Assembly (NCBI GenBank): GCA_012295275.1 | Contig: CM022670.1 | Coordinates: 13,640,001-13,704,000 of the forward strand | Direction: 5' to 3' | DNA: 64,000 bases | Source of the DNA: Chrysomallon squamiferum | Taxonomy: Eukaryota; Animalia; Mollusca | Shown here: positions 1 through 51,525 of the stretch, piece by piece | Numbering within the stretch: position 1 is the first letter of the stretch | Layout of the letters: every line of letters begins with the position of its first letter | The notes under the pieces: generated by a model | Told to the model about the DNA's origin: nothing | Database searches by the model: none | Seen by the model: only the letters and a program-made list of their open reading frames with translations | Position numbers and translations under genes: made by a program

Positions 1-545
1 TGTGCAAATAATTACCGCTTATTGCTAGCGATATTATAATCATCTCGATCTAAATAATTTGTTTATTTGTTTTTGTTTTTAGTTATGTATTTATTTTGTT
101 TGCTAAAGTAATGTCGTGCAGACTGCACCAGAGTTAATTATTAATATAATGCTTAATAAAATTTCAATGCATGTAAATTTCACACGTGCTGAAAACTCTT
201 TCGAAATTAATTATTTTTATCATTGTTGTTTGTTTTTGTTGTATTTATTTATTTTATTCTATTATTATACCCTTGTGTGTGTGTGTGTGTGTGTGTGCGT
301 GTATATATTTTTTTCAGAAGCAGGCATAGGCATCATCACAATCAAATTACACCACTGAACTGAACTAATTTAATATTAAAAGTTACATTAGCTAATTTAA
401 TATTTAATTCAGTGCATTTGTTGTATGACAGTTATGTGATGCACAGATATAGAAATACATTTTTTATTTTTTGAATTTTCAGTTTTGATGATAGAATGGG
501 TGGCAGATAATCAACTGTTATAAAGTTATCAGCAACAGTAACAAG

Positions 546-1650
546 ATGACAGATGGTAAGTATCATATATGTTTTTCTTTTCTTTCTTTTTTCTTATCAT
601 CAGGTTATTTATGCTAAAGCATCTCCAAAGTAATCTTTTAGATAATATGATTTAGAAATCTAAGCTTGAATGTAAATTTGTTTGTATTTATTCATACAGC
701 TCAAATTATATCTTTATATAATTAACAAAATATACTTAGAATTAAAATACAAATGACATCATTTGGTTTTATCATGAATGTTTGATTCTGTTTGGAGTGC
801 ATACAGAGACTGCTTCATCTTCCAAGTACACTGCAAAATCATTCAAAATTCACTATATTATAATTTTAAATATTTCTACTAATCACACAGTAGTTCATTT
901 TTTATTTTTTTTATTTATTTATTTATTTATTTTTACTTATTTATTTATTTATTTTATTTATTTATATTTTAATATTTTTGTCTTTTCATTGTTTTTTCTT
1001 TGGACAAACTACAAAAGATCCTTTTTCCTGAAAAAAAAATCCTCCAAATATGCATGCATCTGGCCACAAGCAGTGAATTCACAACATGGCTGTAACTTCT
1101 TTGAGATGAATGAGGCAAATGCCTCATACCAAAATTGATGATTTTTAATTATTTTTTATATTTTTTTTGTGTACAAAGATTTTATTTGAAAAATATAAAA
1201 TTTAAATCTCTATTCCAATAGAAACAATATCCACTGAATGAATTCATTTATATCTACGATTACCATTTGAAGTCTACCAACATCGTTGCAATGAAAGATG
1301 TAACCCATTTCAAAGATATCAGTTATTGCCTCATTTCAAAAACAGCCTAGTTACAGCCATGCATAAGATAGTGTTCTTCCATTTTATATACTGGCACAAA
1401 GTAAATCAAACATTTCATAAATTTTTAATTTTTTTCTTATTGTTTTTTTAATTTATTTTAGTTGATTTTATTATTATTATTTTTTTTAATTTTATTTTTT
1501 ATGTTTGAACTTATACATTTTTATTTTTCAGATGAAAAAAAGCAAATATGGGCAGACCTGGAAGAGGAATCATTTTTTCTTGGAGCTATTCCACTTCAGA
1601 AATTTAAAGTATAAATTTAATATGTCATTGTATTCAAATTTAATGATTTA

Positions 1651-1706
<56 letters not shown>

Positions 1707-1997
1707 GTATTTTTTTTATCCTATTCAATTTAAATTTCTGAATCTATATTTTGTATTTCACATGGTACCAGTGTCAAGTTTGAAACTGAAATATCTATTT
1801 GATTAAATAATATGTTAAAGTGTATTAATGTTCAACTTTAGCTTTTTACCTTAATTGTTATCTAACAACATGCCAGTCTGAATGTACAACTACAATAAAA
1901 TAAATGTCTGTATAAACTCAGATTGTGCTTATACATTATTCACAATGTGTTTGACATTTTGCTTTATTTTATTATCAGTAATTACTTTATTATTATA

Positions 1998-2051
<54 letters not shown>

Positions 2052-3492
2052 GCAAAACCTTGAACAAAGCAAGAAAGAAGTCAAGTATCTCAGCTTTGAT
2101 ACATGTGCACCAGGATACTGCACTGATGCTGTGCTCAAAATCTTAAGGGATGTTTATCTAGCAAAGGTATCTTTCTTTTTTAAAAATATAATTTGATGAC
2201 TATTTTGATTATTTTTTAATATTATATTGTCCATAATATAAAAAAATTATTGTTCGTTTTGTTTATTTTTTTTATTTTTATTTTTATTTTTTTTTTTTTT
2301 TTTTTTTTTATTTCTAAATTTATATTAAAAGGATGGACTTTAATATTTTATTAGCTTTGTGTATTATTATCAAATTTGTTATTGTAGATTAAAATGTATC
2401 AACATAGATTTATAAATATTATTTTTTCTTTTATTATTATTTTATAATATTAAAAAGGATTAATCCTAAAAACAGAAATAAAAAAAAATAATATGGATTT
2501 GGCAACTGATTCGACATTAGTTAAATCTTATTTTTAAAGAGTTCTTATAAAACAAAACTGATAATATAGTTTATAAAAGAATAAAGATAATTTTAAAAAC
2601 AAAACTCAAGAAGAGGCATATAAAATATTTTTTATATAAACATTTTAAAACTTTCAGATTAAGAAAAAGTCTAAGTACAAGAGTCAGCTATGTGAAATTG
2701 ATCTACGATGCTGTTCTCTTGTCTCTGATAATGGAATTGGATGGCTGGCAGAAATTATTTCATTTTCTCCAAACCTTACCACAGTAATTTATCTTTTTTA
2801 TTATTATTGCTTCTGTTGGAATAAATGATTTTGATATTTCTTGTCCACTTTTAAAAGATTAAAATATTTTAAATGATTGAATTTGTCTTTATTAAGGATT
2901 TGATAAAATTATAAATTTAAAAAAATATATATACATATAATTTTTTTTAACCTTACTTTTCAAATTGTGTCTCATTTAAACCTGAACTATCTGCTTTTCA
3001 ATTTATTGCTTTTATTTTCTAATGATGTAAAGATTTTGAAAAAAACAATTCATGCTTCCATGAAAATATTTTCTGTTTATACTTATGTCAGAAGTCCTAG
3101 AAAAATTAATTAATGATCACAAGTTTAATTTAGTTTACATTTCATTACTTATTTTAATTTCAGTAGTTATTAAGAATTATTTGTGGGATATCATTTTAAT
3201 GATACATGAGCAATGTAACCCCTATTTGCCTTAATTTCAGTTACTATTATCAATTTGCCCATTAAATTAAATTAATTTAATTTATTTATTTATTTTTACA
3301 TAAATTAGAGATTGTACGTTATATTTTGTTTCAGATAAAAATTGATGGGTGCACTAAGGTTACAGACTGTGGAGTTTCAGCCCTGAAAAGTAAAGGGTTG
3401 TGTGTTCACATCTCTGCCATGGCAACATCTGTGACCCATTTAAATCTTGGCAGTTCTACCAAAGGATGTCCTCTGTTGATTGATGAAAAAAA
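546..3492 (+). CDS. ROCO gene exons 1-5: N-terminus with cysteine-containing (AMN1/F-box-type) LRRs
   Basis: Exons 546-555, 1532-1608, 2053-2166, 2658-2783, 3335-3492 translate MTDDEKKQIWADLEEESFFLGAIPLQKFK...LCEIDLRCCSLVSDNGIGWLA...IKIDGCTKVTDCGVSAL. This matches the LxxLxLxxCxxITDxGLxxL LRR-CC consensus. Confidence 0.75.
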
Positions 3493-6010
3493 GTATTTTT
3501 TTTAATTTAATTAAATAGTATTGTTTGGAACTGCCCTTTTATACAAATAATTTTTTTTCATAAAGAAAACAAAGCACAAAAACTGAAATCATGTTGATAT
3601 TCCAGCAAAATTTATTTTTTCAACAATATTTGTGAATTATGTTTCTTTTTAAATATGAACTGAAAATGACTTGCCCTAAATAAAGATAATTTTATTTGGT
3701 ACATAACATGCATTATTTGCTCAGTTATTGTTTTATTGGATATATATATATGTATATATGTATGTATATATAATATATATGAAAAAAATTAAAACTGGAT
3801 ATGAATAACCATCAGGTGTTTACACACTAATCAATTTTATCAGAAGATAGAGTAAATTTAATAAAATAATTTGTTGAACATAACATAGTTGAAATTTCAC
3901 ACTTAATTTTCTTTCATATCTATTTTCTTGTTACATTTTTCCTTTGTTTCTTCATTTTCATTTCACATACACAACAGGTCAACAAAGTGAAGATTACTTA
4001 CAGTGTTATATATTAGTTGTACCACATGAAGACCTGAAAGACAGTTTTGCAGAATATCTGTATGGCAGGTCACTGGTACAGAGAGAATCCATACATCACA
4101 TCAGCAGTTGGACTCTTCAAAGCTGGAACATTGCACTTACTGAATTCCCACACAGCAATGTAAATAACAATTTACTTGCTTGCTTGCTTGCTTGCTTGCT
4201 AGCTTGCTTTACTTACTTAGCTACTTATTTACTTATGTACTTACTTTCTTCCTTCCTTTCTTTCTTTCTTTCTTTCTTTCTTCCTTCCTTGCTTGCTTTC
4301 TTCCTTCCTTCCTTTCTTCCTTACTTACTTACTTATTTACTTCTTTCCTTCCATCCTTACTTACTTACTTACTTACTTATTTACTTCTTTCCTTCCATCC
4401 TTACTTACTTACTTACTTACTTCTTTACTTCTTTCCTTCCTTCCTTTTCTTTCTTTCTTTCTTTCTTTCCTTTCTTCTTCCATCCTTACTTTTCTTCCAC
4501 TTATTTTATTTACTTCTTTACTTCCGTCCTTACTTACTTACTTATTTACTTTTACTTCCCATCATTCCTTACTGACTTATTTCCATCCTTACTTACTTAC
4601 TTTTACTTTTTCTTTCCGTCCTTATTTACTTTTTCTTTTACTTACTTACTTACTTACTTATTTACTTTTACTTTTACTTACTTTTTACTTACTTACTTTT
4701 AATTACTTACTTCCTGACATCCTTACTTCCTTCCTTACTTCCTTCCTTACTTACTTACTTATTTATTTATTATACAAGCATTCCCAAATGTATACAGTTC
4801 CTTTTTTATGTTGTGATTTCCTGGTTTATATATATGTGTGTGTGTTTTTAATTAAACAGTATTGTTTGGTCTTTGTGACATACCAGTACTCTGTTGAGAA
4901 TGCTTCAAGATATTTATATTTTGATCATAGTAGGATTTCACAAAATGAGCCACCAGTGTGTAAATCAGGGCATGTCAATATTTTTTTAAATTTTAGTTTA
5001 CATGTCTATATTCTTATACAAGTTTTTATTTATTTAGTATCTCTGTTTGTATCTGTTTATTGATTGTTACCTTTCATTCATAGTTAAGGTTAGAAAATAA
5101 TAATATCATCACTGATTTTTCCTAGGGAAAATATTTAAGTCTCTTTTCATTAATTATTTATTCTTTATGAAAAAGAAGATTAAAAAAAATATTAATAAAA
5201 AAATAAATAGAAAAATAACAATTTTATAAATCTGTTTTTGTCAAAACACTTAAAAACTAATATTTTTTTAGAATAAATGGTTATTACACTCAATAAAGAA
5301 ACAATAATGATTATTGTTTACTTTCAGCCTCTGTTTGAAAGTTTGGTACCCAAAAATCCAGTGCAAGTGTTGATTCCATTTGATGCCTCATTGGGTATAA
5401 AGCAAATCAGATCTCATATTTCAAAAACCATCACACGGATTCTGAGCAAGGTTGTATATTCTTTGTATATATGCTTTATTTTTGCATACAAATGCACAAA
5501 ACACAGATTAAGTACAGTTCTCTGCTATGAAACTTAAATATGTGCCAAGGAACATCTAAAATGGAACATCTGTGTAATATTAAATTATACTGTTGTCTTA
5601 ATATATTTATGTACTGTATGTATGTATATATATATATATTATATATATTTTAAATAAATCATTTATATACATAATCATTGCATATCTACCTAGTTTTTAT
5701 TTTATGTAAATATACACATTTCACTAGTATGAAAACTGAATGTATGTGAACATAAATAATTTTCATTTTATTATGAATACTTAAAATTATTTATTAGTGC
5801 TAAATGTTCCACATGCTAAATATTCTGTCTCTTTGCAGGAAACAGTTAACCCACCACACAAGAATTTTGACTTCAAGATTACAAACAGTGAGCTCTTTTT
5901 TGACACTCTTACATCAGCAAAGTGTGTTTGGAATCCAGATGGGATCCTCAGGTAAATCAAAATTGTGTCATACAAATGTACATTTATTTATTTATTTATT
6001 TATTTATTTA

Positions 6011-6065
<55 letters not shown>

Positions 6066-6101
6066 ATTTATGTATATATTTATTTATTTATTTATTTATT
6101 T

Positions 6102-6156
<55 letters not shown>

Positions 6157-8328
6157 TATCTTTATTTATTTTTTTTTTTTTGTTTGTTTGTTTGTTTGTT
6201 TGTTGATTGATTGTTAAAGGAAAACTCCAGTTAAATGCATTCAACAATGTTATATTACTTTTTTTTTGTTTCATGGGGCCTCTGAATTTTTTTTTTCCTT
6301 TCCTTTTGTCAGTATCATAGTGATTATGGAGGATTTTATTTTATTCTGTTATTTATTTTTTCTTTGTTTTCTTAATTATTACTTTTGCCCTGTGGTTATT
6401 CACAGACAGCATTCCAGCTAGGTGGGACCTAAAATTTCTGCATTCATGAAAGAAAGTTTATAACTTTTCTTTTGGTTCTGTTATTACTTCTAACATTAAA
6501 TAATTAAACAAGATATTTCAACTTTCATACATGCAAGGCTTATATTGGTCTAAATATTTCTTTATTTATTTCTGATTTATGTGTTAATTAATTTACTCAT
6601 TAGCTAAGTGCACTGTGAATGAATGACTGATTTATTTATTTATACAATTGTTTCTGTATTTTATATATTTATTTATTTATCAAATCATTTTATGAATAAA
6701 CATTAGTACTGAGTCAGTGTGTCATACAAAAATTCAGTAGGAAACTTTTATTTCATGTGTTTTTTGTTTTTTTCTACATTTCTTGAATTTCCAGGAGTTT
6801 GTCAACATCAGAAAGAGTGATAGCCTGCTATGTTTCGAGACAGCCACTGAGTCGAACAAACTGTTACTTTGAAATTGAGTGTCTTGCTCAGGAAGGCTCA
6901 GCAGAAGCAGGTGTGGTTCTGGGAATCATTCACGACAATCTGTTCTCCGACAGGTTTCCAATGGAATCAAACCAAAGGGATGGAGGAGCAGTTGAAGGGT
7001 TAGTGTGTGTCTGATCATAGACACTTTGTGATCGTAGACAGATGTTGCTGTTAAATGTTTTAGTCTCTTGGATGTTTCATACATTGGAGTATAAAAAGGA
7101 AGATATATTTTTGTAAATTAATAAAAATGAAGATATTGTTTTGAAAATTAATAAATTGAAAATATTGTTTTGTAAATTAATGAAAATGAAGATACTGTTT
7201 TTAAAGGAATGAAAAAGAAGATATTTTTTGTAAATTAATAAAAATGAAAGTACTGTTTTTAAAGTAATGAAAATGAAGAAATTGTTTTCACATTAATGGA
7301 AACGAAGATACTGTTTTTGTCCTATGCTGTTAGAACTGTTAATTTTGTTCCAGGTTTGTATTCCGAGTTGGTGATGTGGTAGGTTTTGGTATACATGGCA
7401 GCTGGGATTCTGAGTATGTGCCCTCCAGCAGCTGTTCATTCTACTACACAGTGAATGGTTCCAAGGTCTGTAGCAGCACCTGATACATAAACTTGTTACT
7501 GCCCAAAGATAAATAAAATAAAATAAAATAAAGCAAAGCAAAGCAAAGCAAAAGAAAGCAACAGTAATAAAATATAATAAATCAATAAGTCAATAATGGT
7601 AATAATAAAATATTAATCAATTAACAACACCAAATTCCATTATGTTATAATTTTCATTTAGTAAAGAAACATTTCAAAAATATTTTTATCTCAGTAAATC
7701 AAGGTACACATCAATACAGAATTAAAAATGTTTTTGGATTTCTGTTTTTAAGTAATAATAGGAATAGACTTAAATTATTTCTTTGATAGCATGGGTTTGG
7801 TTGTTGCTCTCACATTTTCTCTCTCTCTCTCTTTTTCTCTCTCTTTCTTTCTGTCCGTCTCTCTCTTGCTCTGTCTCTCTCTTTCTTTCTTTCTTCCTTC
7901 CCTTGCCTTCTTCTTTCCCTCTCCTTCTCCCTCCAGTTTACTTTTTTTCTTTCTTTGTATGAATGAGGGTGAAAGAAAATTAAGTGGCAGTCAGATACTA
8001 AATTTTTAAAATACACTGAAGTGTTTTTACTGTGCAGCGTGAAGACAAGATCTCAAAAGAAAAGCCTCACACTGGGATGTATCCAGTTGTTTCTGTTTTT
8101 GGCAAGAGCACAGGTGAAATCAGACTCAAGAATTATGCTTCACCTCCAGAGGTATGCCATTTATTAACACCGTGAACACACAAATCCTAGTACAATGTGA
8201 TTTTTCAGATTAGCTGAAAAAATTTGGTCAATGTTTTTCGTTTTGTATATTTCAATTATCTGAGATGACATGGGATTTGATTCAGTAATAACAACAACAA
8301 CAACACCAGCAACAACAGCAATAATAGT

Positions 8329-8364
<36 letters not shown>

Positions 8365-9364
8365 CCTTGGACAGATGAAATTAGCCAAACAGTGTCATTT
8401 AGTTTTTTTTTTCTTCTTCTAGGAACTGCAGAAGAAATGGGAAAATGAAAAACTTTACATTGAACCTGGCTTTTCTTACTGTATTTTGTGGGATGAAGAT
8501 GGAGTTTTGACGTAACTGGACATTATACACTTTAACAATATTGCACATTGCTGAAAACATCACTTTAACAAACATTTTCAGTGCTCAAAGCATATGTTTT
8601 TGATTTATCATATCCTGTAAAAATATTTTATCATAAAATTGATTCATTATTAATTTTTGTTATTAATATACATATATATATATATATAAGCAACACACAC
8701 ACACACACACACCTTTCTTATTCCTCCCTAACATAGCTAACTCATTTATGCATCTTTTTGCTACTGTGTTTGATATATATAATACATATGTTTTAAACAT
8801 ATAATGCATTTAAAACTCCTATCATATTCATCTTCTAATTCTTATAATATATCTTTCATAATATATTTTAAAAATTTATATAGATATATATATTTAATTT
8901 TTTATTTATACTAAAACCTTTTTTTTTTTTTTTTTTTCAAATGTGCTTTTAATATATTTTAGGTACACTGATAATTACAAAGCAGAAGGACATGTGGGAC
9001 TGTTTGTGAGTCAGCATCCAATTACAAAGGCCCATAACTCTTGTACCATTGAGATTCTGGGTTTTGGGAAGAAGAGATCCATAGCACTGGGAATTGGGCC
9101 AGAAGATTATAAAATAAACACTCGGCTAGGAGACGTCCTTTCATCAGTTGCAGTCTACGGAGATGGTCGATCGTAAGAGATTTGTCTTTCTATTAAATCA
9201 GAAACAATTGCTGGGAAATGCGTGCCATTTCTTGATACACACACCATAACCAAAATATGTATATATTCTGTCTCTGTTTCCATTGTTGATCCTGCCCTTC
9301 ACATATCTCCCCTCTCATATAGTTTCTTGCTTGCTTGCTTGCTTACTTAGTTACTTACTTACTT

Positions 9365-9417
<53 letters not shown>

Positions 9418-12251
9418 TTACTTACTTATTTACTTCTTTCCTTCGTTCCTTCCTTCCTTACTTACTTACCTACTTATTTTCCTATAGTCTTTGTATTTTT
9501 GATACTGTATAACTCAAACTGAACACACATTTAACAGGACTGCCTCGGAGAAAGCTTCTGAACCTTGGAAGGAAGGTGATTTTATAAAGGCTGTGGTGAG
9601 TGGTTTCAGCGGTGACATGATTGAAAGTGGTGAAGAGGTCACAGTGACATTCTACAGAAATGACCAAAAGGTGATCTTTATTTTCACTTATTAAGAAATC
9701 AATGAATGTTACATTTTAGTGGAAACGGATCCCTTTGTCACCAGTCCATGAGGATTTCTCATTGATCACTAGCAAAAGATATTTTACATGCACTTTCCAA
9801 CATAGATGATATCATTCTTAATGGCTTCCAAAAACATTATTCGTCAGACACAAGTTGGAATAAGAAATAACCCAATTTAATATATACAATTATTAAATTA
9901 TTGTTAATTTATTGATAATTCTTTTTTCTTCAATCTTCAGACCTCTTAATCATCATTAGTTCTGTTATGACTGCTACTACTGCAGATATGGCTGTTATGA
10001 TCAGATTCAAAACAGAAAAGAATCAGTATAAATGTTGTTTTTCAGTTAGAAGAAATGAACCTGTTATATAAAAAGACTGCTGGAATCCGTTGTGTTTTTC
10101 TGATAGCTATGCAGAGTGCAGATGAAAAAGTGAAGATATTAAATTTCAGAAGACCATATCAACCTAATGTTTGTATTTTGCTCATCTTATTTCATAATCT
10201 TCTTACTGGTGATGATATAATAGTTACCATGATATTCTAGTTTCCACATATAACATAATTATTTTTTTTTTAAATCCCTATTTTTTGAATTAGCATTTTT
10301 TTTCTTCAGGACAGTTAATTAACAGATGATATATAATTTTTTATTTTTTATTATGTTTTTTTATTTTTTTTTTGTTCTTAAGTGTTGAATCTAAAAAACA
10401 ATATTTCCTATATTTATCATTTCACTGTAACTGGTTAGTAAGCAACTATTAACATGAAAGTGTTTCTGTATTCTTATTAGTCTATCTCATGGTACATCAG
10501 TGTAGTATATGTTAGATGATATTCTTTAGTTAGCTTTATATATTTATTTACTTTACTCACACAATCCATTAAATAATTCTACTACAAATTACTTTTATTT
10601 CAGCCATTGGCTGATGACAAACTGACCATGGGAAGATGCAACTACATCAACGTCTACGACGATGGGACACTGACATATTAGTGAGTTATTTGAAATCTTT
10701 GATTGGCCAGAAGTAAATAATCTAATATATATCAGATATTCTCATTCTGAAAGAATGTTTTAAACAATGTACATAATCTGATGTCACAGGCAGTGTGTAA
10801 GACTGAACAAAAAAAAAAAAATGTATCTTTCTGATTATTTGATAAGTACTTAAATGAAGCTGAGTTTTCAATTACAGCCTGCAGTCTGTTAAAAGCTGTG
10901 GATCAGTTGTGGTCATTGTTTTGTTAATTTTTTTTTTTTTTTTTTATGGGAAAGGAATGTTAGCTTTTTTTATATATTTCTCTTCTTTTCAGTAGTGAAG
11001 ACACAAAATTAATGACTTGTTACAAACAACAGAGGAAATAAAATATACAACAACCTTTTTTTTTTCCACAGTTTCTTAAAAATGATTTGCTTTATTTGTC
11101 AGTGTATTAATAATCCTTTTCAGCAAATTCAACAAAGAAAAGCCATTTGGTTTGTACGTCTCCAAAACACCTATTTCTAAAAGTCTGCCTTACTTTGAGA
11201 TGAAAGTTTTGAAAATACACACAGATAAACATGTGGGAATTGGACTTTGTCACCGAAACTACAAGATTAATGAAATGCCAGGCTGGCTGGGAGGATCGAT
11301 TGCCTATCATGCAGACAATGGACAGTGAGTTTATCAGCTAATTTAATTAACAAATATGTTATTATTGCTTTTTTTATTATGTTGAATTAATGTTATTAAA
11401 AATTGTTTAATAATATTATTAATGTTGACAGTTATTTTTTCTTTGAAAAAATATTGATTATTATTATTAATATTGGGGTTGTTGTAGTTTTTGTTGTTAT
11501 TACAATTCTTATTCTTATTATTCTTGTTATTATTGTAATTATTGTTATTATTATTATTACTGAAAGAATGACTAGAACATAATGTTTCATTTACTAATCG
11601 GCTCTGTATCTTGTTTTTGTTTAATATTTAAAATATTAGCTAATTAACAAGTGTATTAACAAGTGTATTAATTAGCACTGTATGTATTAGTATATATATT
11701 CTTTTATACCTGATATTGTAAAATGCTTTTAAAATAATTTTTTTAGAAAAGGCTCGTAATACTACTACTATATGCAGTAGACTGGTTCACTGAAAACATG
11801 TCAAATGAACTGGATAAAGATTAGTGATTCAAAAAACAAATATATAGCTTGAATGTTGATTCTGTAGATAAGCCACTGAAAGATAATATTTAAAAAAAAT
11901 AATAATAAGAATTAAAACGAATGGAAAATAAATATAAAATTATTATTATTTTTATTGTTATTATTATTATTATTATTATTATTTATTATTATTATTTTCC
12001 TTTCAACAGGTTATACATGAATGCATCTGCTGGCTTGAAGACTTTGGAAATGGACACTGATAAACTTATATATGGTGAAGGAGATGTGGTTGGTTGTGGG
12101 GTGGAGGCAGTTTGTGTGGGAAAGAAACTGAAACCTCAGCAGACCATCAAAGTCTTCTTTACCAAAAATGGCACAAGGGTGGGTACAAAAACATTTCAAA
12201 ACATCTGTAACCATAAAAATAAAATAATTAAAAAATATAATAATAACAATC

Positions 12252-12296
<45 letters not shown>

Positions 12297-14345
12297 GTAA
12301 ATTTATGAAAACCTAAAGGCATGGAGAAAGTATATCAAATCATTGCTGAAGTGTATGATTTATTTCACAACATTTCATGTTTAATTAATTTGTCGGGACA
12401 CTTTATTATTAGCAAACCTTGGTTACGAGCAGAAAATAAGTCAGTAGAGAATACTAACTTAAATGTTTTTAGAAACCATTTATACATCAGATGTATAAAG
12501 TACAATTAATCCAAAGTTATTATAACATGGCACTTTGTCCATACAGCATATATAATTAAATTACAACAGTGATGCAGTTTTAACTATGATGCAGTCTAAA
12601 AGGTGATGAAATACGAAGAGAAACTGTTGCTGTTATATCTTTATTTTGGATTATCAAAAAAGCTGTTAATTATTCTTGTAAAAAAGAAAAAAAGAAGAAA
12701 AAGATGATGTCTGTTTAGTCATCATGTTAATGTTTGATCCTGAAATGTCCTCCAGATGCCTTTGAAATTCCTTTTTTTTTTTTTTTTTTTTTTGGAATGG
12801 GTCATTTAAAGTGAGATGAGATGTTCTTAAATATTTATCTGTTTTGATCTGTTTCAGATACATGAATATGAAATGGAATACAACATGGATGGTTTATATC
12901 CCTGTGTTTCTTTACACTATGAAACAGACAAAGTCCAGCTCTACAACTTCTCCTCTGCCTGCCATACAGTGGTTTGTCTGTTTGCACTACTAGTACCAGT
13001 ATAATTATGATTTGTCTGTTTATATTACTTCACTGTATCATTTGTCTGTTTATATTTACCTTTGTGTATCATTTGTCTGTTTACATTTACCTTTGTGTAT
13101 CATTTGTCTCTTTACATTTACCATTGTGTATCATTTGTCTGTTTACATTTACCTTTGTGTATCATTTGTCTCTTTACATTTATTTTGTGTATCATTTGTC
13201 TCTTTACATTTACCTTTGTGTATCATTTGTCTCTTTACATTTACCATTGTGTATCATTTGTCTGTTTACATTTACTATTGTGTATTATTTGTCTGTTAAC
13301 ATTTACTATTGTGTATTATTTGTCTGTTTACATTTTTCTTTGTGTATTATTTATCTGATTAGGGTATTATTTTATTTGTTTTGTTTTTTTCTACTATTTG
13401 TCTCTTAATTATATTTATCTTTGTCATATCCACACCAAAAGCTTGACATCAGTTACCTGGTTTTCTGAAAATTAAACAAACCTCCCCAGTTAGCCAGCCA
13501 TCTTTTGTCATTTAAGGAATATCAAGACATTTGGTAATTCAGACATTTGGTAACTCTTTCAGGAAAAATCAACATTAAACAATCAGTGTGTTGATAACCC
13601 AGAAGAAGAATCTCCTAGCACTGATACCCAGACTGAAGGTTGTCATTTCCTCGTTGTTGCTGTTGGCGATGGGTCGTGTGATCCAGCAGAAAAGATAGCG
13701 ATGGTGAAACAGAGCCTTGATCTGTCGAGGGATCTCGATCTAGTGGGAGATCTCGAGAAGGAAATAAAGGAATTAGAAAGGTACAGTTTGATATGGCTGT
13801 GTATGTCTTTGTCTGTGTGTGGAGATTGTTGTTGTCAGTATGATCGTAGATGATCGGAACAGTCCCTGTTTGAGACTCCATGCAAATCCAGATGTTTTTT
13901 AAAATGTATCATACAGTAAAGTATTTTTGAATTAAATTTGTTACTGCTATCGTACACTGTTACTTCTATCGCATCAGGTTTTTAATTTATTATATATATA
14001 TATATATATATCTGAGCAATAAATATATATATATAGATATAAGAAAAAACAATACAGTCAGCTTTGATAATAAAATGCAATTTGTTCTAAATGTTTATGT
14101 AGTTGTATCGATATTTGTTAGAGAAACAAGTTACATTTTACTAATAACCTACTTTTATTCAGTGTAACAGAATTATCTGTTTTTAAGATGGCATTTTTCC
14201 CCTTTTTTTTTATCTGTTCTTTCTGTTTGATTTTAAACAGTCATATTTTGGAGTTTTGTACATCTGTAATAACCATAATAACAGCAATAACTATATACTG
14301 AGACAAATAAAGATGTGTATTTTGTGTGTGATTGTGTGTGTGTGT

Positions 14346-14392
<47 letters not shown>

Positions 14393-14437
14393 CATACACA
14401 TACATAAATACATATATATTATAGAGAGAGAGAGAGA

Positions 14438-14477
<40 letters not shown>

Positions 14478-17060
14478 AACACAGACATATATATAGGTAT
14501 TTGTTAGTTTTGTTATAAATTAACAACATGTTTTACAGGAATCTGGATAGTCTGCGTGTGCAGGGACAGCAGTACTACAGCAACCTGTCGTGGAGATTAC
14601 AGTGCTTGAAACGCATCATCGCCAGTCCACACAGGCTGCATTTCTTGGCTGTCAACACAAACACAGGACAGGTAATGTCACCTTGTCAGTTATGCTCTCA
14701 AAAAGATATCAGAAATGTCAGAAAGGATTAATATTTTATACTAAATACAAAAAAGAAATTTTTATAAAAACATATAAAGAGAGGTACATAGTCTCTTCTG
14801 GCTTTTTTTTGATAAAGTTTAATTAATTTCTAAACATTCAGTTTAAATGATAGTTCAACAATTAAATATAACAAAATAAATGACATCCATGTTGGCAGTT
14901 TTTGAACTCTGTTTACATTATACTGATAATGGAATATGTTTTGCTTCATCTATGCATTATAAATTAATTTTAAAATTAATTTTTAAAAATGTTAATACTT
15001 CTTAATTAAAAATATTATCAGTCATGTTTGTTTTGTTTTTTTGCATTATTCCTCTTTTAATATTTAAATTAATTTAAAAGTTTTAATATTTGTTAATTAA
15101 AAATATTATCAGTTATGATTTATTAACATTATTCCTGTTATAATATTTAAATTATTTAAAAAATTTTAATATTTCTTAATTAAAATTATTATCAGTTATA
15201 TTGTTTTTTCATTTTAATATTTTTCTCAGTATGTTATTACAAAGAAATTAACTGAAATTTAATTATTCTTAAATTCATACTTGCCAGGGATATGATGATT
15301 TAGTGAGCACTATTGTGTTGAATCAGAAAACTGATCAGATGTCGTATCCAAAGTTCTATAAACTGGACAATACTGTTAAAGAAAAACTTGAGAAAATTGT
15401 TTCTGTTGTTCAAACACACGGAGTAATTCCCATCTCTGAGTTGGATGAGACGACAGGTGGAATCTTTGGTGAATCGTGTCACCTGTACAGCAGAGCAGTC
15501 AAGTTTTTACACAAAAAGGTATTTTTATTTTTTTTTTTTTTTTTTTTTTTTAAATAATATTTGATTTAGTTATAGAACTGTTATGTTCAGAGATGTAAAA
15601 TTTTATGAGGAGTGAAAAAGATAGTTTTATTTCATGTAAAATAATTTTATTATGTTCATTAAGTTCAAATTACTGTAGTGAACAATTGGTTTAAATAAAA
15701 GAAATCAGTATCTAGTGAAAACAATGGAGAACATTTGCTGGAAAACATACAGATGAACATCTCATACAAAAACAAAACCGGAAATTCAGGATATTAAAAA
15801 AACAAATATGTAGCAGTTACTAGTTTCTGGTTTCGATGATAAAAAGAAAATGGCTAAAGTGTTATTCTGTTTGCGTGTTGAAGGGTCAGCTTGTCTACCT
15901 GCCATCCAGGATTTCTCATCTAGCTCTGGACATGGAGTTTGTGAAGAAAAGACTGCAAATTGGAGTTGGAACTGAACCTAATGAACAGGTTGGCAAGAGA
16001 GTTCCTTGTGTAGGGGAGACAACTCGAATCTGGACTAAGGACATTATTTCTGAGCTCCTGAAAGAAAAGGTTTGTTAAAGAAATTGTGTTACTTTTTATT
16101 TATTTTAATCTTATCTTAATTAAATACATTAAAAAAAAAAAAAAAAAAAAATTTTAATATGAAAACCTGAAATCTTGTTGCTTATTTGGAATATATCCAT
16201 CATTACTCAAAAGGCTGTTTCATGTTTACAGGGTAAAAATATGCACACTGTGTTGGTTTATCTTGGAATTATGCGTTTGCCGTGTATCAGAACAAAACCT
16301 GAGGATCCTGTTTGTCTGTTTACCACACTGGATAAACTGCAGCCAACTGAAGCTAAACTGGTAAAATTTGTTTTATTTAATAACTTTTATTTATTAACAA
16401 GTAGTTTGTCTGTTTGTCTCTCTCTTCTCTCCCCATTATTAATTTATTTTTCTTTGCAAATCCTTTCTAATCATTTTAATATGCACCAGGATGAAAATTT
16501 TGCAATTTAAATTTAATTAATTTCTGAACAATTGTAAAGGAAGCCTTAAGTTTTGTAACTTAATACTTTAAATAAAGTACAAAACAAATTAAAATTAAAG
16601 TTCAAGTGGAAACAATTGTTTATTATATTTTATTGTTATTATTTCTAAACCATCATATCTATGATCAATCAAACAACATAATGAATAAATGATTATTTCT
16701 GAAGTATTTAAATTATTTCTCAGAGTGATTTCTGGGCTAATGGCAAAGAGCTGGAAAACACTGTAGTGATGTCACGCTGCTACAAGTTTGCAAATGGATT
16801 GCCACCGAGTCTGCTGTCTGCCACGATGACGTTGTGCTCTAACTTCTCACGACCAGTCTTGCTGTGTTCCAATGGAGGCGTGTTCCAGTCAGGGGCTGTG
16901 CAGACTGTCATCATTCAACACAATATTCAAAAAGGTGGGTTCTTTTTTTAATTTTAATTTTTACATTTCAGAGATTAGAGCATATTTTTTTGTTTTAAAT
17001 ATCCTTTTTTTTTTCTTTCCTAATAATAAAATAGTATCATTCATATTTCACATCTTTCTG

Positions 17061-17096
<36 letters not shown>

Positions 17097-19971
17097 TTTA
17101 TCCATTCTTATTTATTTATTTATTTGATTTAATCTTTTTACAGTCCAAAACTGTATGGACAGAAATCTTTTAAATGATAGTCAACAGAACATTTTGGTTA
17201 TTTTATAAGGTGAAGCAGTGACAATTGAATCAAAATGTTTTTGTCCCGAGAATGACAATGAAACAATTGACGAAGACACGAAATTCCATATTGAGGAGTA
17301 CACATGGCAGGCATACTGCATTTTCTGTGACATCATAGATTTCTACATCGCCAACCAGGGCCTTGTTACCATCATTGAGGAAAATGAACCACAGTGTTTT
17401 GGTCAGTATTAAATTTTTTGGTAAGAGTTGTCTTATATTATTAGATCAAACATCTCTGAACTCTAGTCCACTGTTTTGATGATAATTTTATTTTTGCCAC
17501 CTATCTTATGCAGAGAACAGTGTGCACTGAAGTAGTAATAAACCGTTTTAAGCAACAATTTTAAATCTGGATGATCTATAATTTAGTTAAATATATAATT
17601 GTTTTTCTCTCTAATTCCAAAGAGTATTAAATATCATAAATAATTGGAATATGTGTTATTGTGAGATGTATATAATGCATGTTCTATAAACCAATCACAT
17701 ATGCATCACATTATAATTTTACCAAGAATATATTTGATCTGTTAAGTCTTAAACATTAGTCTCCTAGTCCTTTTTCACAAACATATGGTTTCCATAGACT
17801 TAATCACTACCTACCATTAATATAATTACAACATGACAATTTACATTATTAATTTTTTTTAAACCTTTAAATTGTATTTTTTAAGTTGTATATTTATGTT
17901 TTCTATTTTATTCTTTCCTCTTTCTCTTTTTCTTTCTGCTATGTACTAAAATTTATCACAACAGTTTGAAATATATTCTGGTTTCAGTGAACACCTCAAT
18001 TGGTTGTTCCCACGACTGGACTTTGTCTGATCTCGAGCATCCTCAGACTGTGTGCACCATGTGTAACTTGTGCTGTGACAGCGGAATTGACTGCAAATGG
18101 AGTGGAATTATGGGACAGTATCTCCGTGAGTGTTGCTGCGGAACAAAAGTAAACGGATGTAGGCAATGCGGGATATGCAAAAGATGTGCTGATGAATTAT
18201 GGGTAAGCATCATTTAAAAAAAATATATATATCTTGTAGGGCATTCAGTGAAAGGGTGTTATTTTAATGCATATGGACAGAATAATGTACACTGAATGAA
18301 TTATCATCATAATTATTATTTTTGAAATCTGTGTGAAAAGTTCTAGATAAAATAGTAAAAAAACAACTTTGAAGTTCTTTAAAAGAGAAAATTGAAAAAA
18401 AAAAAATCTTAATGCCTGCTCAGACTGTCATAAAATTCACATTTTAACCATTTACATGTGAATGTTTTATTTTGTTTGAAAAGCAAATTCGATCATTTCT
18501 TCGACCCTGTATTGAAGTATCTCAGCCTTCTAAAACTGGCAAACACAGTGCAATTCCTATCAATGGTGTCACATCCAATGAAGTGGAGTGCATCAATCTG
18601 GACATATCAAGTATGCCTGTCTGTCTACAGAAGTAAGTAAAACTTGTTTAAAATCACATTTCATCTATCACGCATTATTGTCACCCATTAATTGTATGGT
18701 TCATTACTTTCACACCTGTTAATTGTTTGTTTTATTACTGTCAGACTGTTGTATTGTTTAACTTATTACTGTCGTTCATTAACTGTGTTGTTTATCATTG
18801 CCAGTCTCTTTAATTATACAATTTATTAACATCAGAGTATATTACATTACTGTCAGAATCTTTAACTGTTTTCTTTACGACTGTCAGACTTGATAATTGT
18901 TCAGTTTATTACTGTCAGACTCTTTAATGTTTTGTTTATTACTGTCAGATTGTTTAATTGTGTGGCTTATTATTATTATTAGATAGTAATTTTTACTGGC
19001 AGTCTTTCATTAAACTAACAATTCCTTTCAGACAAAATGACTCTTCTGGAGCAGTAATTCAAGTGTTTCCTGGGGCTGCAGTGGAGATTCCATCAGTGAC
19101 AGAAATAGAAGAATATAACAAGAAAAGAAGGTCTGTTAAATCCAAGCTGAGGTTCGATCAGGGAGACATCATCAAAATCAAACTCACTGAGATTCCAGTA
19201 AGATTATTTCACACAAATTTCAATTTAAATTCAATATCTTTTCAGTACATTTGATTACAGTGGAAATTTCACATAGTTTTTAAAGATCTCACATAGCATA
19301 ATAATTAACCAAGTTTTGTATATAAACTTTCAATTTTTTTTATTTTATAAACTATCTGTTATTATTAACTTATTTGATTCCAAAACAAAATCTTTGAGTT
19401 TCTATTTGATCATAATAGAAATTACATTAAGATAACACCGATTCCAAGTATTATTCCCATTTAAGATTAATAATTTTTATATAACAAATTGCTAGATATT
19501 TATTTCCCCATAATTATTACATCTACATGAAAACTCAGCTAATACTGAGACTTTGTTTTCTTTTTTAATAAACAAAATATTTTATAATCACAATTCCATT
19601 TGCAATCTATATTTAATATACTTTTGTTTTTCTATTGTCGTTATAATTTTATTTACAATCAAATCATTACTGCTGCAGCTATTATTACTATTAATTTTTG
19701 TATTGTTATTATTTATTAAAACAGCATTAATTTATTATTATTACTATTACTACTACTGCTAGTGCTGCTGCTGTTACTACTACTACTACTACTACTATTA
19801 CTATTATTATTACTGATTTTAATTTTGTTATTATTACTGAGTTATATTAATATTCCTACTACCACAACTATTATTATTACTGCTACAACTACTACTACTA
19901 CTCCCTGTACCACTGCTACTACTACTACCACCATTACTACTGACTTATTACAATGTTATTATTATTACTAG

Positions 19972-20018
<47 letters not shown>

Positions 20019-20275
20019 AGAGAACCGAGCAGGTGGTTGCAGATGTTGATGAAGAAGATGAGGTAGTGGAGATAAAACCTGTGTATCACACAATATTTTG
20101 CCGTGAAACAAGAATCTGGCATGACACAGGAATCCTGTGTTACGATTCAGCTTCACCATCCATTCCTGTCGGGCAATTTTGTGCAGCACAACCTTTGACC
20201 CCAGAGTGTAACAAGTTCTCAATTGGTAAAAATACTACATATACATACATATATAGATATATATATATATATATC

Positions 20276-20312
<37 letters not shown>

Positions 20313-23300
20313 GTATAGAGATATATATATTTATTTTAAAAAACAAACATTTAACTTGTATTTAAATTAAAAAAATAATAATAATTTTTTTTATAAAAGT
20401 TGTATGAACTGTTAAAGTTTTTGGTTTTATTTTTAATATACATTTCAATGGACATTTTTTTAGTTACATGTAATGAACAAGGAGGAAATTATTATTTCTT
20501 TCACAGTATTAAATATTTTAATATTTTTGTGGTTTTTACTTTTTATAAACATTGATATGTTTGATTATTTTTGTTTATTTTTTTCTTCTTTTTTTTAAAC
20601 ATTGATATGTTTGATTGATTTTTTTTTTTGATTTTTTTTTTAAATTATGATTATGATGTATTGGTAAATGTGAATTTTAAAACAACATTCAGTATAATGG
20701 TAAACATCTCTTTCACTGTTCATATGAAATATTAGAAAATGTGCATTTTCAAAAATAATTGTAACTATTTATTATTATTATTTACATATTTTATATATTA
20801 AAATATTGAAAAAAGAAGAATGATTTATGATGTATTAATAAATATCTTTATGTTGTCAAATAAAATTTTTGGGGGAATAAATCTGAAAATATTCGGTTAC
20901 TTCCTTACAATTTCATTCCATAATCAACTTACTAAATATTTTACTTACTTCAGAAATCATAGAACCAGGAGAACTGAGAACCATTTCTATTGGCTTGTGT
21001 CACAAACGTTACCTTGCCAACCAGCAGCCTGGCTGGGCATCTTCATCCATTGGTTTCCATGCAGATGATGGAGGGTAACTAAAAGTTTTTTTTGAAATAT
21101 GTTTTGTTAAGATATTAATGACAAATACTTATAAGTTTATTCAATTTAGAAAGAGAACAATAGTTATATTTATTATCTTGTCTACCAAGAATGATCCAAA
21201 CAGTATAAAACTGTAGAATAATGCTTTACATAAGTATGCAAAGGATATGCAAGGCTATGCACACACACTAACACACACATGCACAGATAAACACATAAAT
21301 GCCCCAAAACAACATGATGCATACATGCAATAACACATATATTTGTTTACCAGTACATAATAATATGAAAATATAAATGTGTTTACAGTAAATTCACCTG
21401 ATTTGAAATTCACCATTCTGTTTTAAAATGTTCTAGTAACAAGAGATATCTATGTGTCTTAACTAATTTTTCTTGTATTATTTAAAAGTATTTTTGTTGC
21501 CTCTGGTTGGCCACTTCACAAAGTTGGAGAAGTTTTTACTGGTGACAAGATGACGTGTCAGTTGGATGTGGACAGAAGTAAAGTTATATTTTACCACAAT
21601 GACAAACAGGTACATCTTCATTAAAGTGTTCTTGAATATTATCTGTTATTAAATTGTTTTATTTGAGAACAGAAGTAAAGTTATATTTTATCACAATGAC
21701 AAACAAGTACATCTTCATTAAAATGTTCTTGAATATTATCTGTTATTAAATTATTTTATTTGAGGACAGAAGTAAGGTTATATTTTATCACAATGACAAA
21801 CAGGTACATCTTCATCAAAATGTTCTTGAGTATTATCTGTTTATCCCTTTTTTTTGGAGGACAGAAGTAAAGTTATGTTTTATCACAATGACAAACAGGT
21901 ACATCTTCATTAAAATGTTCTTGAGTATTATCTGTTATTAAATTATCATTTATGTTGGGTTTTAAAAAAAAAAAAAAATATTATTTATTCGAACAATTAA
22001 ATTTGACAATGCAATTTTATTTTTTAAAAATACAAAACAATTACAGGTATATGAGAGTAACAAGTTACGTATGACTGCAATGTATCCAATTGTTGGTCTG
22101 CACTCTGAAGGCGAAGTTGTACGTTTGCTGGACAAAGAACCATGGCTGCCTCCCCAAAAAGGAGATGTGAGATACTTATTTTTAATCATTCCAGTTTATA
22201 TTTTGAATAAAATCAAGGCATGAACATTTACAAATTTAACCTCCAGTCTTTGTAAATTATTCGTGAAGCAATGGTTGGAATAGGAAAATAACTATCTTAG
22301 ATGTATAATTGTTTTTAAATGTTTTTGCACAAAGCAGAAAAGAACATGTTTAAAATCAGTGAAGAACAAAGCATTAGTCAATTGGATCATGTTTGTATTT
22401 CATTTGGAATAATATTTCTCACTAATAAAAGGAAATCTAATAAAGGTTGTGGCTATTTCTTTCTCACACACATTTGTTTTGTTGTGCTTTTTTTAGTGAA
22501 CAGTGCTGTCTTTTTTTTCCAGTTACCACCATTACCTGCTGCATTTGACTGTAAGAAATATGGAAACTTATGGATCAGGTAGGTAGAGTGATATGATTTA
22601 ATTCCGATTCTTGTAAAATTATTTCATTTAATAACTTTTTTTTATGATTTCAAGTATTATGATAAAAATATTTTATGAGTTTGATGTTAAAAGAAAATAA
22701 CAACAACAACAAAAAACACTCCCTATTTGTTTTTAATATATCATAGTTTTCAATATTACATTGAACATGTAATAATTTCCTAAGACATAACTTATATTAT
22801 ATTTATGAAATCAAATAACAAACAATGACCTTTGGTACAAAATAGTAAAGGATCTTGCATGTCAGATGAACAAAATAATTAAAAATAAATTCACTTTTAA
22901 ATGGTTATTATTTTAATCTATTCACTTTTTAAATGATTATAATTTTATTTATTTATTTATTTATTTATTATGATTAAGAAAATGTCTGTTATTACCATGT
23001 CGCTTTTTTGGGGGGGTTTTGTTGGGGTTTTTTTCTTTTATTATTATTAATTTTTTTTAATGTTTTTTTTCCAAACTTTTATTATTAATTTTTTCAAAAT
23101 ATAAAATTTTAAAATTTACAGTCCAGGCCACACTTTACACCTGTTGAGCAGAGCTGCACTTCATGGCTGGCTTTTACTTCACAATCCAAGTAAAGACCTC
23201 ATTGGATTCATGGTGTGTGTGACCATCAGCTTAATTTTCTCTTCTTTTTTTAATTTGCCATGATTATATTTCAGCCTCACTCTCCCTAACTCTTTAATGT

Positions 23301-29995: not shown

Positions 29996-32900
29996 TTTTA
30001 TAACTATATATATTTTTTTTTTTTTGTTCTCTTATTATTTATTAATTTAAATGCAAACTCTAGCTTAAAGCATTTTGAAATTTTTTGGAACCAATATATT
30101 CATAACAATTTGTGTGTGGTTTTTTTCTTAACAGTATATGTCATATTTTTTATTTACTTGTTTATTTTATTTTTTTAAATATTTTTTAAAAATATTTTTT
30201 TGATGTTATGTCAGAATTACAAATATTTATTTTCATATTTTATCTTAGTTGTTGCTGCCACTGTGTGATAAAGTTTTTCCAGGTGGTCGGCCTGACTTTT
30301 CTAGAGAACAGGTGAGACAATACAAGATTTGTGTTATTTCTAAACAGACAGGTGTACTGTGAGACACTGTTTGACAATAGGTGCAGTAAAGCTAAACTTG
30401 AGTACTTTAAATTTTAAAAACTGTATCTTATAAAATTATCACAGTTTGTAATATTATGATACAGTAAAAATCTTACTACAGTCAGAAATAAGTTTATTAT
30501 ATTAATGGCAAACTTTGCTAGTCTCTATTAAAAAGTTCTGTTAAAGTCAAACGTTGTAACTGATAAATCAGGAATTTTTCTAATGATTATTAAATACCTG
30601 AAGAAGAATGGTTTTGCTAAAAAAAGAAAAAAAAAAAAAGGATCAATCTTGTTTCTGATTTATTTATTTATTATTTGTCAATTTATTTATTTATTTATTT
30701 ATTTCACAAACAGCTAGAAGTGATGATGTACCAGTTGTTGCAGATTTACACTGCACAGTGCCACATCATCGCTGAGCAGTACGGCAGTCTGCAGAATCAA
30801 CACATGTACAACTCGGGCACAGCCAAGATCAACAGTGCCATCAGCTATGACGACGTGAATGTCAAGACCACGGTGGATGTTGAAGATTCGTCCTACCTGC
30901 TGAAAAGAAAATTCCGCAACCACTGCCTGTGTAAAACACACCTGTGGACGCTGGAGAAAACCAGCATGTCTGACGAGGTGAGTGTGGACCTGACCATGAG
31001 CTGCTTCACGCCCTACGAAGAGACTGTCAACTGCTTCGCTCGAGACCTCTACACAGTCAAGTCCCTGCCTCCAGACCTGTTTGAGAAATTTTCAAATCTG
31101 CAGTACTTCTCCCTTGACGTCTGTGAGGCCATGAAGAGACTTCCCGAAGGAATATCCGGATGCAGACGTCTGTCCACCATTTCCCTCTGCAACATCGCCC
31201 TCACGTCGACTGCCTCCCGACATTTTTGTGACTCCTCAGCTGGAAAACCTCACCTGTTCCAACCTCATGGTCAAGACATTGCCTGGTCAGTGGCCTGTGT
31301 CCAGCAAACTGACCAGACTGGTGTTATCAGGTTTGCAGTTGGAAGCAGTTCCCAAGGAAATCTGCAAGTTGCAGGAGTTGCACTATTTGGATCTCAGTTT
31401 CAATCCACTGACTGATCTGCCCATTGAGTTTGGAGAACTAAAGAAGCTGAAGAGTCTTTCGCTCTGTGGTAATAATTTTCTTTTATCTACTATATCTTTA
31501 GTAATGTCTTGTGTTTGTATAGCATATATTCTAATAACTATTTTGTTTTGTATATTTTTAAGCTTTTTTCTGTTTTTCTTTTTTTTTTTTTTTTTTTTAG
31601 GTACATTAATAATATTTTTGTGCAGTAAATATATAAAATAACTGAGAAAAACAGTTTTGTGCACAATATATTCATGGCAATAAATTACTCATGATGTATA
31701 TGTGTTAATGATCTTTTGTGCAAGAATGACAAAATCTAGATATTTAATTTTTGAGATTTTGGGGGTATTTTCATGAAAACAATGAATGTGTTTGTAAGAA
31801 AACATATCAAGAATTTATCAAAAAAAATTCTCAAATAAAGTGGAATTTTTTTATCATTTTAAATTGTCAATTATATTATAAGTTTAAACATAGATAATTT
31901 TACTTGAATATTTAATTAATTATTTTCCCATCAATTCCAACGTAATTAAGTAACTAAAATTGTATGGAAACATAATAGGTGTCTGAAATAATATTGTGAC
32001 TGTTTGTTTCAGGAATGCCTTGGATTTCAATGGACCATAACAAAACCATCACCTTTGACATTTACACAGACTGGTTCAATGACAGACCATACATACAAAA
32101 CTTTTTGTCAAAAGAGGTAATGTGAATACCTACAAACCTTTTTCATATTTTCCTTAATTATTTGTATTTATTTTCTACATGTGGTGAAAAGAGAATAATA
32201 GAAATAACATTTAAAAAAAAAAAATAAAATGAATAAATATAATTTTGTACTTTATTCATAAATAGATTTGATATTTTAATATTCAGTTAAATAACAAAAC
32301 AGCAGGAAGAAAGTGTTTATTTTGTTTGTGTCTAAAACTGAATGATGTTTTATATCTTATCAGAAAATCATGCAGATGTATTCAGAATGTGATGTCAGCA
32401 AAAATGGAATGCTTGATGTAGAAGATATTGCAAGGTTAAATCTCAGACTGTTCTGGGAAATTCCAAGAATTGGATCCAAAAACCTGAGTGAGTAGCATTC
32501 TGCTGATGATAAATGTTGCTTGTTTTTTTTTGTTTTTTTTTTTTCAATCTAATTATTTTATTCAATAAGAAGAATTCAATTGATTAAACTCACTAACATT
32601 TATGATTATGTCAAATATTATTTGTTTGGCACCAAGTACTTACTAAAATTAATTTTTATTTTTATTTTCTATAATTTTAATTTTTTTTATTATTATTATT
32701 ATTTATTAGTTTTTATAGCCTTAACAAAAATCTTATTATGCATTTTCCAGATGATGAAGAATATGGTGGTATTCCGCCTGCGATATTTCTGCTTACCTCC
32801 CTTGAAGAGCTCTTTCTTGACCACCAGGCTATTGTTGCTGTTCCTGCCTACATGTGTCGTCTGCTCAACTTGAGGGTTCTCAGTCTGACAAATAACCCTT

Positions 32901-51485: not shown

Positions 51486-51525
<40 letters not shown>

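Follow-up and report, generated by a model that had tools for sequence, protein, structure and literature searches.

Exon structure and expression of the locus

We analysed a stretch of 64,000 nucleotides from Chrysomallon squamiferum (GenBank assembly GCA_012295275.1, contig CM022670.1, positions 13,640,001 to 13,704,000 of the forward strand), hereafter called the window and numbered from its first letter. On the plus strand the window carries an upstream module, in which three SPRY-like domains precede the last strand and helix of a Roc domain and a COR domain, and, further downstream, a canonical LRR-Roc-COR-TIR gene. Judged from its sequence, the product of the upstream module is likely a nucleotide-blind relative of the LRRK2-type (ROCO) proteins. 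The features are listed in Table 1.

The window is AT-rich (GC content approx. 0.28) and its open frames were all short under the bacterial, the standard and the ciliate genetic code. The plus strand showed a long run of coding-looking pieces, as in eukaryotic, intron-rich DNA; the ciliate code had been weighed and was dropped once exon structure explained the frames. Our exon model of positions 3978-18202 comprises 22 exons, all with GT-AG boundaries and matching phases, which read as one frame of 1162 amino acids (aa) without a stop. When the three exons at 2053-3389 were joined in frame, 25 consecutive exons with GT-AG sites gave 1261 aa of open frame. The limits given for the module in the first-pass annotation, 3978 and 15518, coincide to the base with the start of exon 1 and the end of exon 17. 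On the minus strand of positions 1-20000 we found 39 open frames, for which Pfam gave two chance-level matches below the cut-off, and Rfam gave no match in the same 20,000 positions.

The splicing of the module was supported by one RNA contig (run X6, 187 nt, depth 3.2). The contig fits positions 13562-13605 and contains 143 further letters upstream, the last 30 of which are the end of exon 14. As the contig runs from exon 14 straight into exon 15, the junction between SPRY3 and the C-terminal flank is in frame, and the donor of exon 14 could be set at 12971. This donor has the non-consensus sequence GTTTGT (12969-12976), which was confirmed by RNA for exon 14 and is predicted for exon 10 (10169-10174). 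The stretch around exon 15 was fully covered by two DNA runs. The other RNA run, X7, had no contig at 13530-13810, from which a lack of expression does not follow. The introns are rich in mini- and microsatellites, which include long tandem arrays rich in TC, AC or T, at 4160-4800, 6000-6220, 9250-9500, 12970-13400 and 14290-14500.

Table 1. Features of the upstream module and the canonical gene, with positions in the window (aa, amino acids of the 22-exon model)
Feature	Position	Strand	Content	Basis
Upstream exons (U)	2053-2166, 2658-2783, 3335-3389	+	in frame into exon 1	GT-AG boundaries and phases
Exon 1	3978-4159	+	aa 1-60; N-terminal flank; 'G1' ILVVPHEDLKDSFAEYL and 'G3' ALTEFP	splice sites
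Exon 2	5328-5453	+	aa 61-102; N-terminal flank; VLIPFD, then amphipathic helix	ends at a phase-0 intron, SPRY block follows
SPRY1, exons 3-6	5839-8151	+	aa 103-285	phases 0-2, 2-2, 2-0, 0-0
SPRY2, exons 7-10	8423-10168	+	aa 286-470	phases 0-2, 2-2, 2-0, 0-0; exon 10 donor predicted
SPRY3, exons 11-14	10604-12971	+	aa 471-657	phases 0-2, 2-2, 2-0, 0-0; end set by RNA
Exon 15	13563-13780	+	aa 658-729; acidic Ser/Thr/Pro linker, strand CHFLVVAVGD ('G4'), start of a long helical stretch	
Exon 16	14539-14671	+	aa 730-774; rest of the 66-aa G4-G5 stretch (helical by eye), strand LHFLAVNTNTGQ (G5)	phase-0 end
Exon 17	15288-15518	+	aa 775-851; Roc α5 and start of COR-A as far as the FLHKK motif	
Exons 18-21	15884-17401	+	aa 852-1090; COR-like: rest of COR-A, COR-B	
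Exon 22	17988-18202	+	aa 1091-1162; Cys-rich, probably zinc-binding module after COR	
Canonical LRR-Roc-COR-TIR gene	28325-51856	+	GxxxxGKT, DFAGQ and THCD intact	Pfam on exons, orthologues

The SPRY block

The first-pass annotation had placed about 550 aa of three SPRY domains between two flanks, and we found 555 aa (aa 103-657) between the 102-aa N-terminal flank and the C-terminal flank, the 3' junction being the one supported by RNA. The three domains are mutually homologous, with Smith-Waterman z-scores of 19.5, 19.8 and 6.0 and none of 500 shuffles as high in each comparison; the two highest scores tie SPRY1 and SPRY2 to SPRY3. At the level of single exons Pfam matched SPRY (PF00622) in SPRY3 only, at 11086-11325 (E 4.3e-4; 20.8 bits, cut-off 26.3) and at 12011-12220 (E 0.045). 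The scores stay under the gathering score because introns cut each domain in four.

In the alignment of the three domains the introns lie at equal places, and the same four-exon pattern of phases occurs three times. We concluded that the block is a tandem triplication of a four-exon unit, the whole forming a 12-exon cassette with phase-0 ends. Phase-0 introns bound the cassette on both sides, and a phase-0 cassette in phase-0 introns would be the expected outcome of exon shuffling into a phase-0 intron. The linkers around the block, 20 aa before it and 26 aa of acidic Ser/Thr/Pro-rich sequence after it, would fit the insertion of a domain whose ends have to return to the host fold.

Roc tail and COR domain

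The C-terminal flank was compared with orthologues of the canonical gene. In blastp, aa 759-1020 matched residues 586-834 of roco11 from Haliotis (P0014) with an E-value of 1.9e-5 and 22.7% identity over 273 columns, and the Smith-Waterman score of the same region had a z of 12.5 (0 of 300 shuffles as high). The orthologue from Lingula (P0016) gave an E-value of 0.004 and a z of 6.8, again with 0 of 300 shuffles. In semi-global alignments of the C-terminal flank with the C-terminal part of Roc, z ranged from 2.1 to 7.6 in all four orthologues, against -1.1 to 0.7 in swapped controls. A RocCOR hidden Markov model (HMM) matched aa 768-856 with an E-value of 0.0036, a score that was reached by one of 1000 shuffles. 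One and the same colinear alignment (HF..G.G..L..L.QK..P....GI....A..FLH..G) recurred with P0006, P0013, P0014 and P0016, running from 'HFLAVNTNTGQGYDDL' via 'L.QK....P' and 'GI....A..FLH..G' to 'YKFA.LP..L' of COR-B.

The intron inside G5, between NTGQ and GYDDL, lies at the same aligned place as that between SSVQGK and GIAEL in the canonical Roc gene, and both are in phase 0. The second pair, between HSN and PLFES and between THQ and FFLS, is likewise in phase 0 and at most one residue apart.

Several observations weighed against this assignment. The local scores were significant with only two of the four orthologues (15 of 300 shuffles were as high with P0013 and 129 of 300 with P0005), and the start of COR-B alone was significant with one of five. 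P0003 lacks the G5 intron and reads through the site. With a threshold as loose as E <= 10 Pfam still matched none of the ten exons of the flanks and the COR-like region, and it recognised the Roc and COR exons of the canonical gene. A profile search of the PDB with exon 17 and its relatives gave nothing relevant (best E 0.61), and the AlphaFold2 model of P0003 from a three-row alignment was unusable, with a predicted local distance difference test score (pLDDT) of 46.9. From the alignments, the HMM match and the shared G5 intron we concluded that the G5 strand, α5 and COR are truly ROCO-derived, and strongly diverged. The claim that the Roc G5 region leads into COR was thereby borne out by colinear homology with true ROCO proteins over aa ~760-1020. 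The wider claim, that Roc-like flanks on both sides of the SPRY block lead into COR, held from 'HFLAVNTNTGQGYDDL' on, where Roc G5/α5, COR-A and the start of COR-B are homologous. For the N-terminal flank and 'G4' the statistics lend it no support.

Relatives of the module are rare. Among 1.84 billion representative proteins exon 17 had three matches, one close (96 aa, 64% identity, identical exon boundaries), one distant (121 aa, 37% identity) and one a repeat protein, and the cluster of each had a single member. To judge from their ends, the close and the distant relative are probably open frames read through from genomic sequence, and the contig that carries P0001 is 162 kb long. No longer protein was found with exon 17 or with the 171-aa exon at 30738-31250, when proteins of 148-2000 aa and of 301-2000 aa were searched. 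Metagenome loci of the JGI gave 341 pattern matches, none of which was confirmed. In literature searches on ROCO or COR with SPRY and on pseudoGTPases with Roc, no such protein was found described.

No annotated full-length relative was found, which is one of the points for a decaying or mis-modelled locus, with a dead duplicate of the neighbouring ROCO gene or wrongly chosen exons behind the model and no such protein made. The RNA cover of the region also counts against a functional gene, as it is thin (9% of the sampled words; one contig, from one of the two RNA runs), and the neighbouring canonical gene carries two frame disruptions (near 31207 and in the A-run 33813-33816). Against this explanation stand the 25 exons with GT-AG sites in a single open frame of 1261 aa, the RNA contig that is correctly spliced from exon 14 to exon 15, and exon 17, which is 64% identical with equal boundaries in a second organism and 37% identical in a third. 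The conservation of exon 17 argues for selection on the coding sequence. Because of the open frame, the spliced RNA and the conserved exon we regard a dead or mis-modelled locus as very improbable.

Nucleotide-binding motifs and the N-terminal flank

All five Roc-like motifs named in the first-pass annotation were found at their places: ILVVPHEDLKDSFAEYL at 4010-4060, ALTEFP at 4133-4150, VLIPFD at 5367-5384, CHFLVVAVGD at 13641-13670, and the G5 motif, in which intron 14672-15287 separates LAVNTNTGQ from GYDDL. Under this mapping, the loss of the G1 glycines, of DxxG and of the G4 His could be read directly from the sequence. GxxxxGK[ST], DxxG and [NT]KxD/THxD are absent and the mapped positions read VPHEDLKD, TEFPH and AVGD, where the canonical gene of the window has GLGGAGKT, DFAGQ and THCD.

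Whether the part before the SPRY block and 'G4' belong to a Roc domain is a different matter. The order of the elements in the flanks agrees with that of a G domain: four stretches of 5-6 consecutive hydrophobic residues, with an amphipathic helix after each of them, and a hairpin. Without the insert, the distance from the putative G3 to the putative G4 would be 48+9 = 57 residues, compared with 58 in canonical Roc (own count). The near-coincidence of the phase-0 introns HSN|PLFES and THQ|FFLS also favours the mapping. The best AlphaFold2 model of exon 1, computed from the single sequence, had a pLDDT of 74.1 and showed a strand (8-15), a helix (23-29) and two strands (40-46 and 49-56). The order in this moderately confident model, strand-helix-strand-strand, is the one expected for β1-α1-β2-β3. 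Furthermore, according to PMC4104024 COR does not occur without Roc, so that the presence of COR predicts a Roc domain, or the remnant of one, upstream. A TIR-like nature of the N-terminal flank was also weighed by eye and dropped, because the first strand and helix alone fit.

The direct comparisons gave the N-terminal flank no support as Roc. With the RocCOR HMM, 502 of 1000 shuffles reached the score of the real N-terminal flank, and semi-global alignment with Roc gave z-scores of -0.6 to -1.6. Global alignment was run in 24 settings, which combined two matrices and three gap settings with each of four orthologues; z was 0.5-1.2, with 49-116 of 400 shuffles as high. When the flanks were joined after deletion of the SPRY block and compared with Roc, z was 0.4-3.0 and 3-131 of 400 shuffles were as high. 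Exon 1 had no match in Pfam or the PDB and no usable match in the ESM atlas, and exon 15 gave chance-level matches only in the PDB. With hhalign, the flanks aligned to the RocCOR alignment at probabilities of 0.2-3.9%, from a profile that was too shallow (effective number of sequences 1.9). Apart from the best one, the AlphaFold models of exon 1 scored poorly (four models, pLDDT 44-51). A Foldseek search with the best model found nothing at E <= 0.001 (lowest E 0.23), and no GTPase was among the approx. 45 matches listed. CHFLVVAVGD, which had been assigned to G4 by position only, tended to align with G5 rather than with G4 in both hhalign and Smith-Waterman comparisons, at non-significant scores. 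Finally, no intron interrupts the canonical Roc gene at the point where the cassette is proposed to have entered.

The main alternative is that Roc is truncated, so that only G5 and α5 survive before COR and the SPRY domains stand in place of most of the G domain, not within it; we regard this as possible, with some doubt. The N-terminal flank would then be the end of the upstream LRR region together with a small linker or an ARM-like helical piece, an assignment that we hold with the same reserve. The absence of a Roc signal from the N-terminal flank in every test speaks for a truncation, and the resemblance of CHFLVVAVGD to G5 possibly reflects a local duplication rather than β5. The upstream exons at 2053-3389 follow the pattern LxxLxLxxCxxhTDxGhxxL, which we take to be that of cysteine-containing (RNI/FBXL-type) LRR units; Pfam gave no LRR or other match for these three exons. 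'G1' lies 28 residues after the preceding unit of this type and, by eye, fits the LRR pattern: ILVVPHEDLKDSFAEYL is in 28-aa register with the LxxhxhxxCxxhTDxGhxxL units, whose hydrophobic positions and Asp it shares. The score of 'G1' against the three upstream units was unremarkable, however, ranking 112 of 1143 windows, and the hairpin that follows the first strand and helix in the best exon 1 model is not LRR-like.

Exon 2 gave a PDB match of its own, the only signal for this exon in any database, that bears on the same alternative. It resembles the ARM region of ZNFX1 (9eve_A 27-57, E 0.013; 9q9z_A 236-266, E 0.22), and 14 of 31 residues are identical, ungapped, with residues 236-266 of human ZNFX1. 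These residues lie within the ARM domain, which comprises residues 141-321 (PMC13710534). The match would support an ARM-like piece, but it is a single borderline result among eight PDB queries. Further points disagree with a truncation. A stable G-like domain is impossible from just two strands. Outside the SPRY block ~95 + 105 aa separate the LRR from G5, which in size equals a Roc domain with one insert, and the hydrophobic runs, amphipathic helices and hairpin come in the order of a G domain.

The canonical gene and other features of the window

After COR, exon 22 contains approx. 17 Cys in 71 aa (own count) and probably encodes a zinc-binding module; it had no match in Pfam or the PDB. 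A fourth SPRY-like domain lies downstream of COR and the Cys-rich exon, at 20015-22180 on the plus strand (open frames read by eye), and its exon structure is unlike that of the triplicated cassette.

The canonical gene starts approx. 13 kb downstream of the G5 exon region of the module, on the same strand. Its end at 51856 was taken by eye from an open frame, and the matches to orthologues extend as far as 50909. On single exons Pfam recognised Roc (E 4.8e-4 and 9e-5), COR-A (2e-11 and 2.2e-8) and COR-B (3.8e-9). Orthologues with Roc, COR-A, COR-B and TIR were found in gastropods (Bulinus, Aplysia, Candidula, Haliotis) and in Lingula, as would be expected of DNA from a mollusc, and the PDB relatives of these orthologues were Roco and LRRK2 structures, with E-values of 1e-43 to 1e-38. 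In tblastn none of six orthologues, two of which are partial models, matched the window upstream of 28325. The canonical gene and the degenerate module upstream may be one gene or two.

Compared with the orthologues, the canonical gene shows two disruptions of the frame, an extra base at approx. 31207 (ACGTCG-A-CTGCCT) and the A-run 33813-33816, in which one base is lacking. Either the assembly is in error at these places or the gene is decaying. In the Bulinus truncatus model P0005 (1871 aa), residues 962-1427 and 1537-1866 map to the same exons of the TIR region, so that the C-terminal part is present twice. The Ser/Thr-rich open frame at 51485-51856 on the plus strand has CEIQ just before its stop, an ending that by eye is CaaX-like. 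Exons at 61688-62351 on the plus strand, with LYPHQKQALHWM and LADDMGLGKT, resemble, by eye, a helicase gene of the SNF2/HLTF type.

Discussion

What defines ROCO proteins such as LRRK2, DAPK1 and MFHAS1 is the coupling of a functional Roc GTPase with COR. A natural protein that has COR and lacks the GTP-binding motifs of Roc would show what COR does without the GTPase cycle, a question that bears on models of how LRRK2 is regulated. With such a protein, SPRY would join the sensor domains used by invertebrate candidate immune receptors of ROCO type. What limits the case is its rarity, with two fragmentary relatives, and a Ras-like fold that is putative.

We propose, with about an even chance of being right, that the upstream module is of ROCO type and that its G domain has turned into a pseudo-GTPase which hosts the SPRY cassette and acts as a nucleotide-independent scaffold. 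In this proposal the SPRY triplet stands upstream of the Roc tail and likely inside the remnant of the G domain, between helix α3 and strand β5. The 102-aa N-terminal flank would supply β1-α1-β2-β3-α2-β4-α3 and exon 15 would supply β5. The SPRY cassette would have come by exon shuffling into a phase-0 intron. GTP is predicted to be neither bound nor hydrolysed, leaving a fixed scaffold in which COR would give dimerisation and the three SPRY domains, on linkers of 20-26 aa, would give ligand recognition. By analogy with SPRY/B30.2 sensors a role in innate immunity is plausible, and the adjacent LRR-Roc-COR-TIR unit might be the signalling partner.

A more specific form of the proposal, which we consider unlikely, is that the Roc domain is a folded pseudo-GTPase with the 12-exon SPRY cassette in its α3-β5 loop, and that the product, dimerised by COR, is a nucleotide-independent 'sensor' paired in tandem with the canonical gene as 'executor'. 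If true, such a pair would be the animal ROCO counterpart of the paired NLRs of plants.

Domains that resemble G domains and lack the motifs are known. In p190RhoGAP (middle domains) and AAGAB (N-terminal domain) motif-less pseudoGTPase domains serve as interaction scaffolds (PMC5593906, PMC12490416). Crystal structures and binding assays established those cases, none of which is a Roc, whereas the loss of motifs reported here is seen in the sequence alone. As for the SPRY domains, immune sensors with SPRY/B30.2, such as TRIM proteins and NACHT-SPRY NLRs, couple SPRY to an NTPase-type switch or an effector (PMC8195603). The partners in these sensors are RING, HECT, NACHT and Death-like domains, and a SPRY with Roc-COR is not described in the available text of PMC8195603.

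The closest comparison is with the ROCO proteins themselves, for which we considered the canonical gene of the window, Bulinus Btru_024553, Aplysia LOC106011403, Haliotis 'roco11', Lingula 'pats1', LRRK2, MFHAS1/MASL1 and the plant protein Tornado1. The module shares with them the order LRR (putative in the module), G5-like strand and α5, COR-A and COR-B, and with the canonical Roc gene also the phase-0 intron inside G5. In Tornado1 an RI-like LRR precedes Roc-COR (PMC4104024), and LRR-like exons likewise precede the module here. The module differs in lacking GxxxxGK[ST], DxxG and THxD and a Pfam match for Roc or COR. It has 555 aa of SPRY between the putative α3 and β5, and its putative G4-G5 distance is 66 aa, compared with 19 aa in the canonical gene (own count). 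It also adds the Cys-rich module and the fourth SPRY after COR.

For the proposed insertion itself the nearest parallel is DDX1, a DEAD-box helicase in which a SPRY domain is inserted in the RecA-like core and is presumed to be a platform for protein interaction (PMC4555926). In both proteins SPRY would lie within an alpha/beta fold of the P-loop NTPase type, the host fold being putative in the module. The single SPRY of DDX1 sits between motifs I and Ia of an active helicase, whereas the module has three SPRY domains and has lost the nucleotide motifs. If the fold holds, the module would be the second case, after DDX1, of SPRY inserted in a P-loop-type fold.

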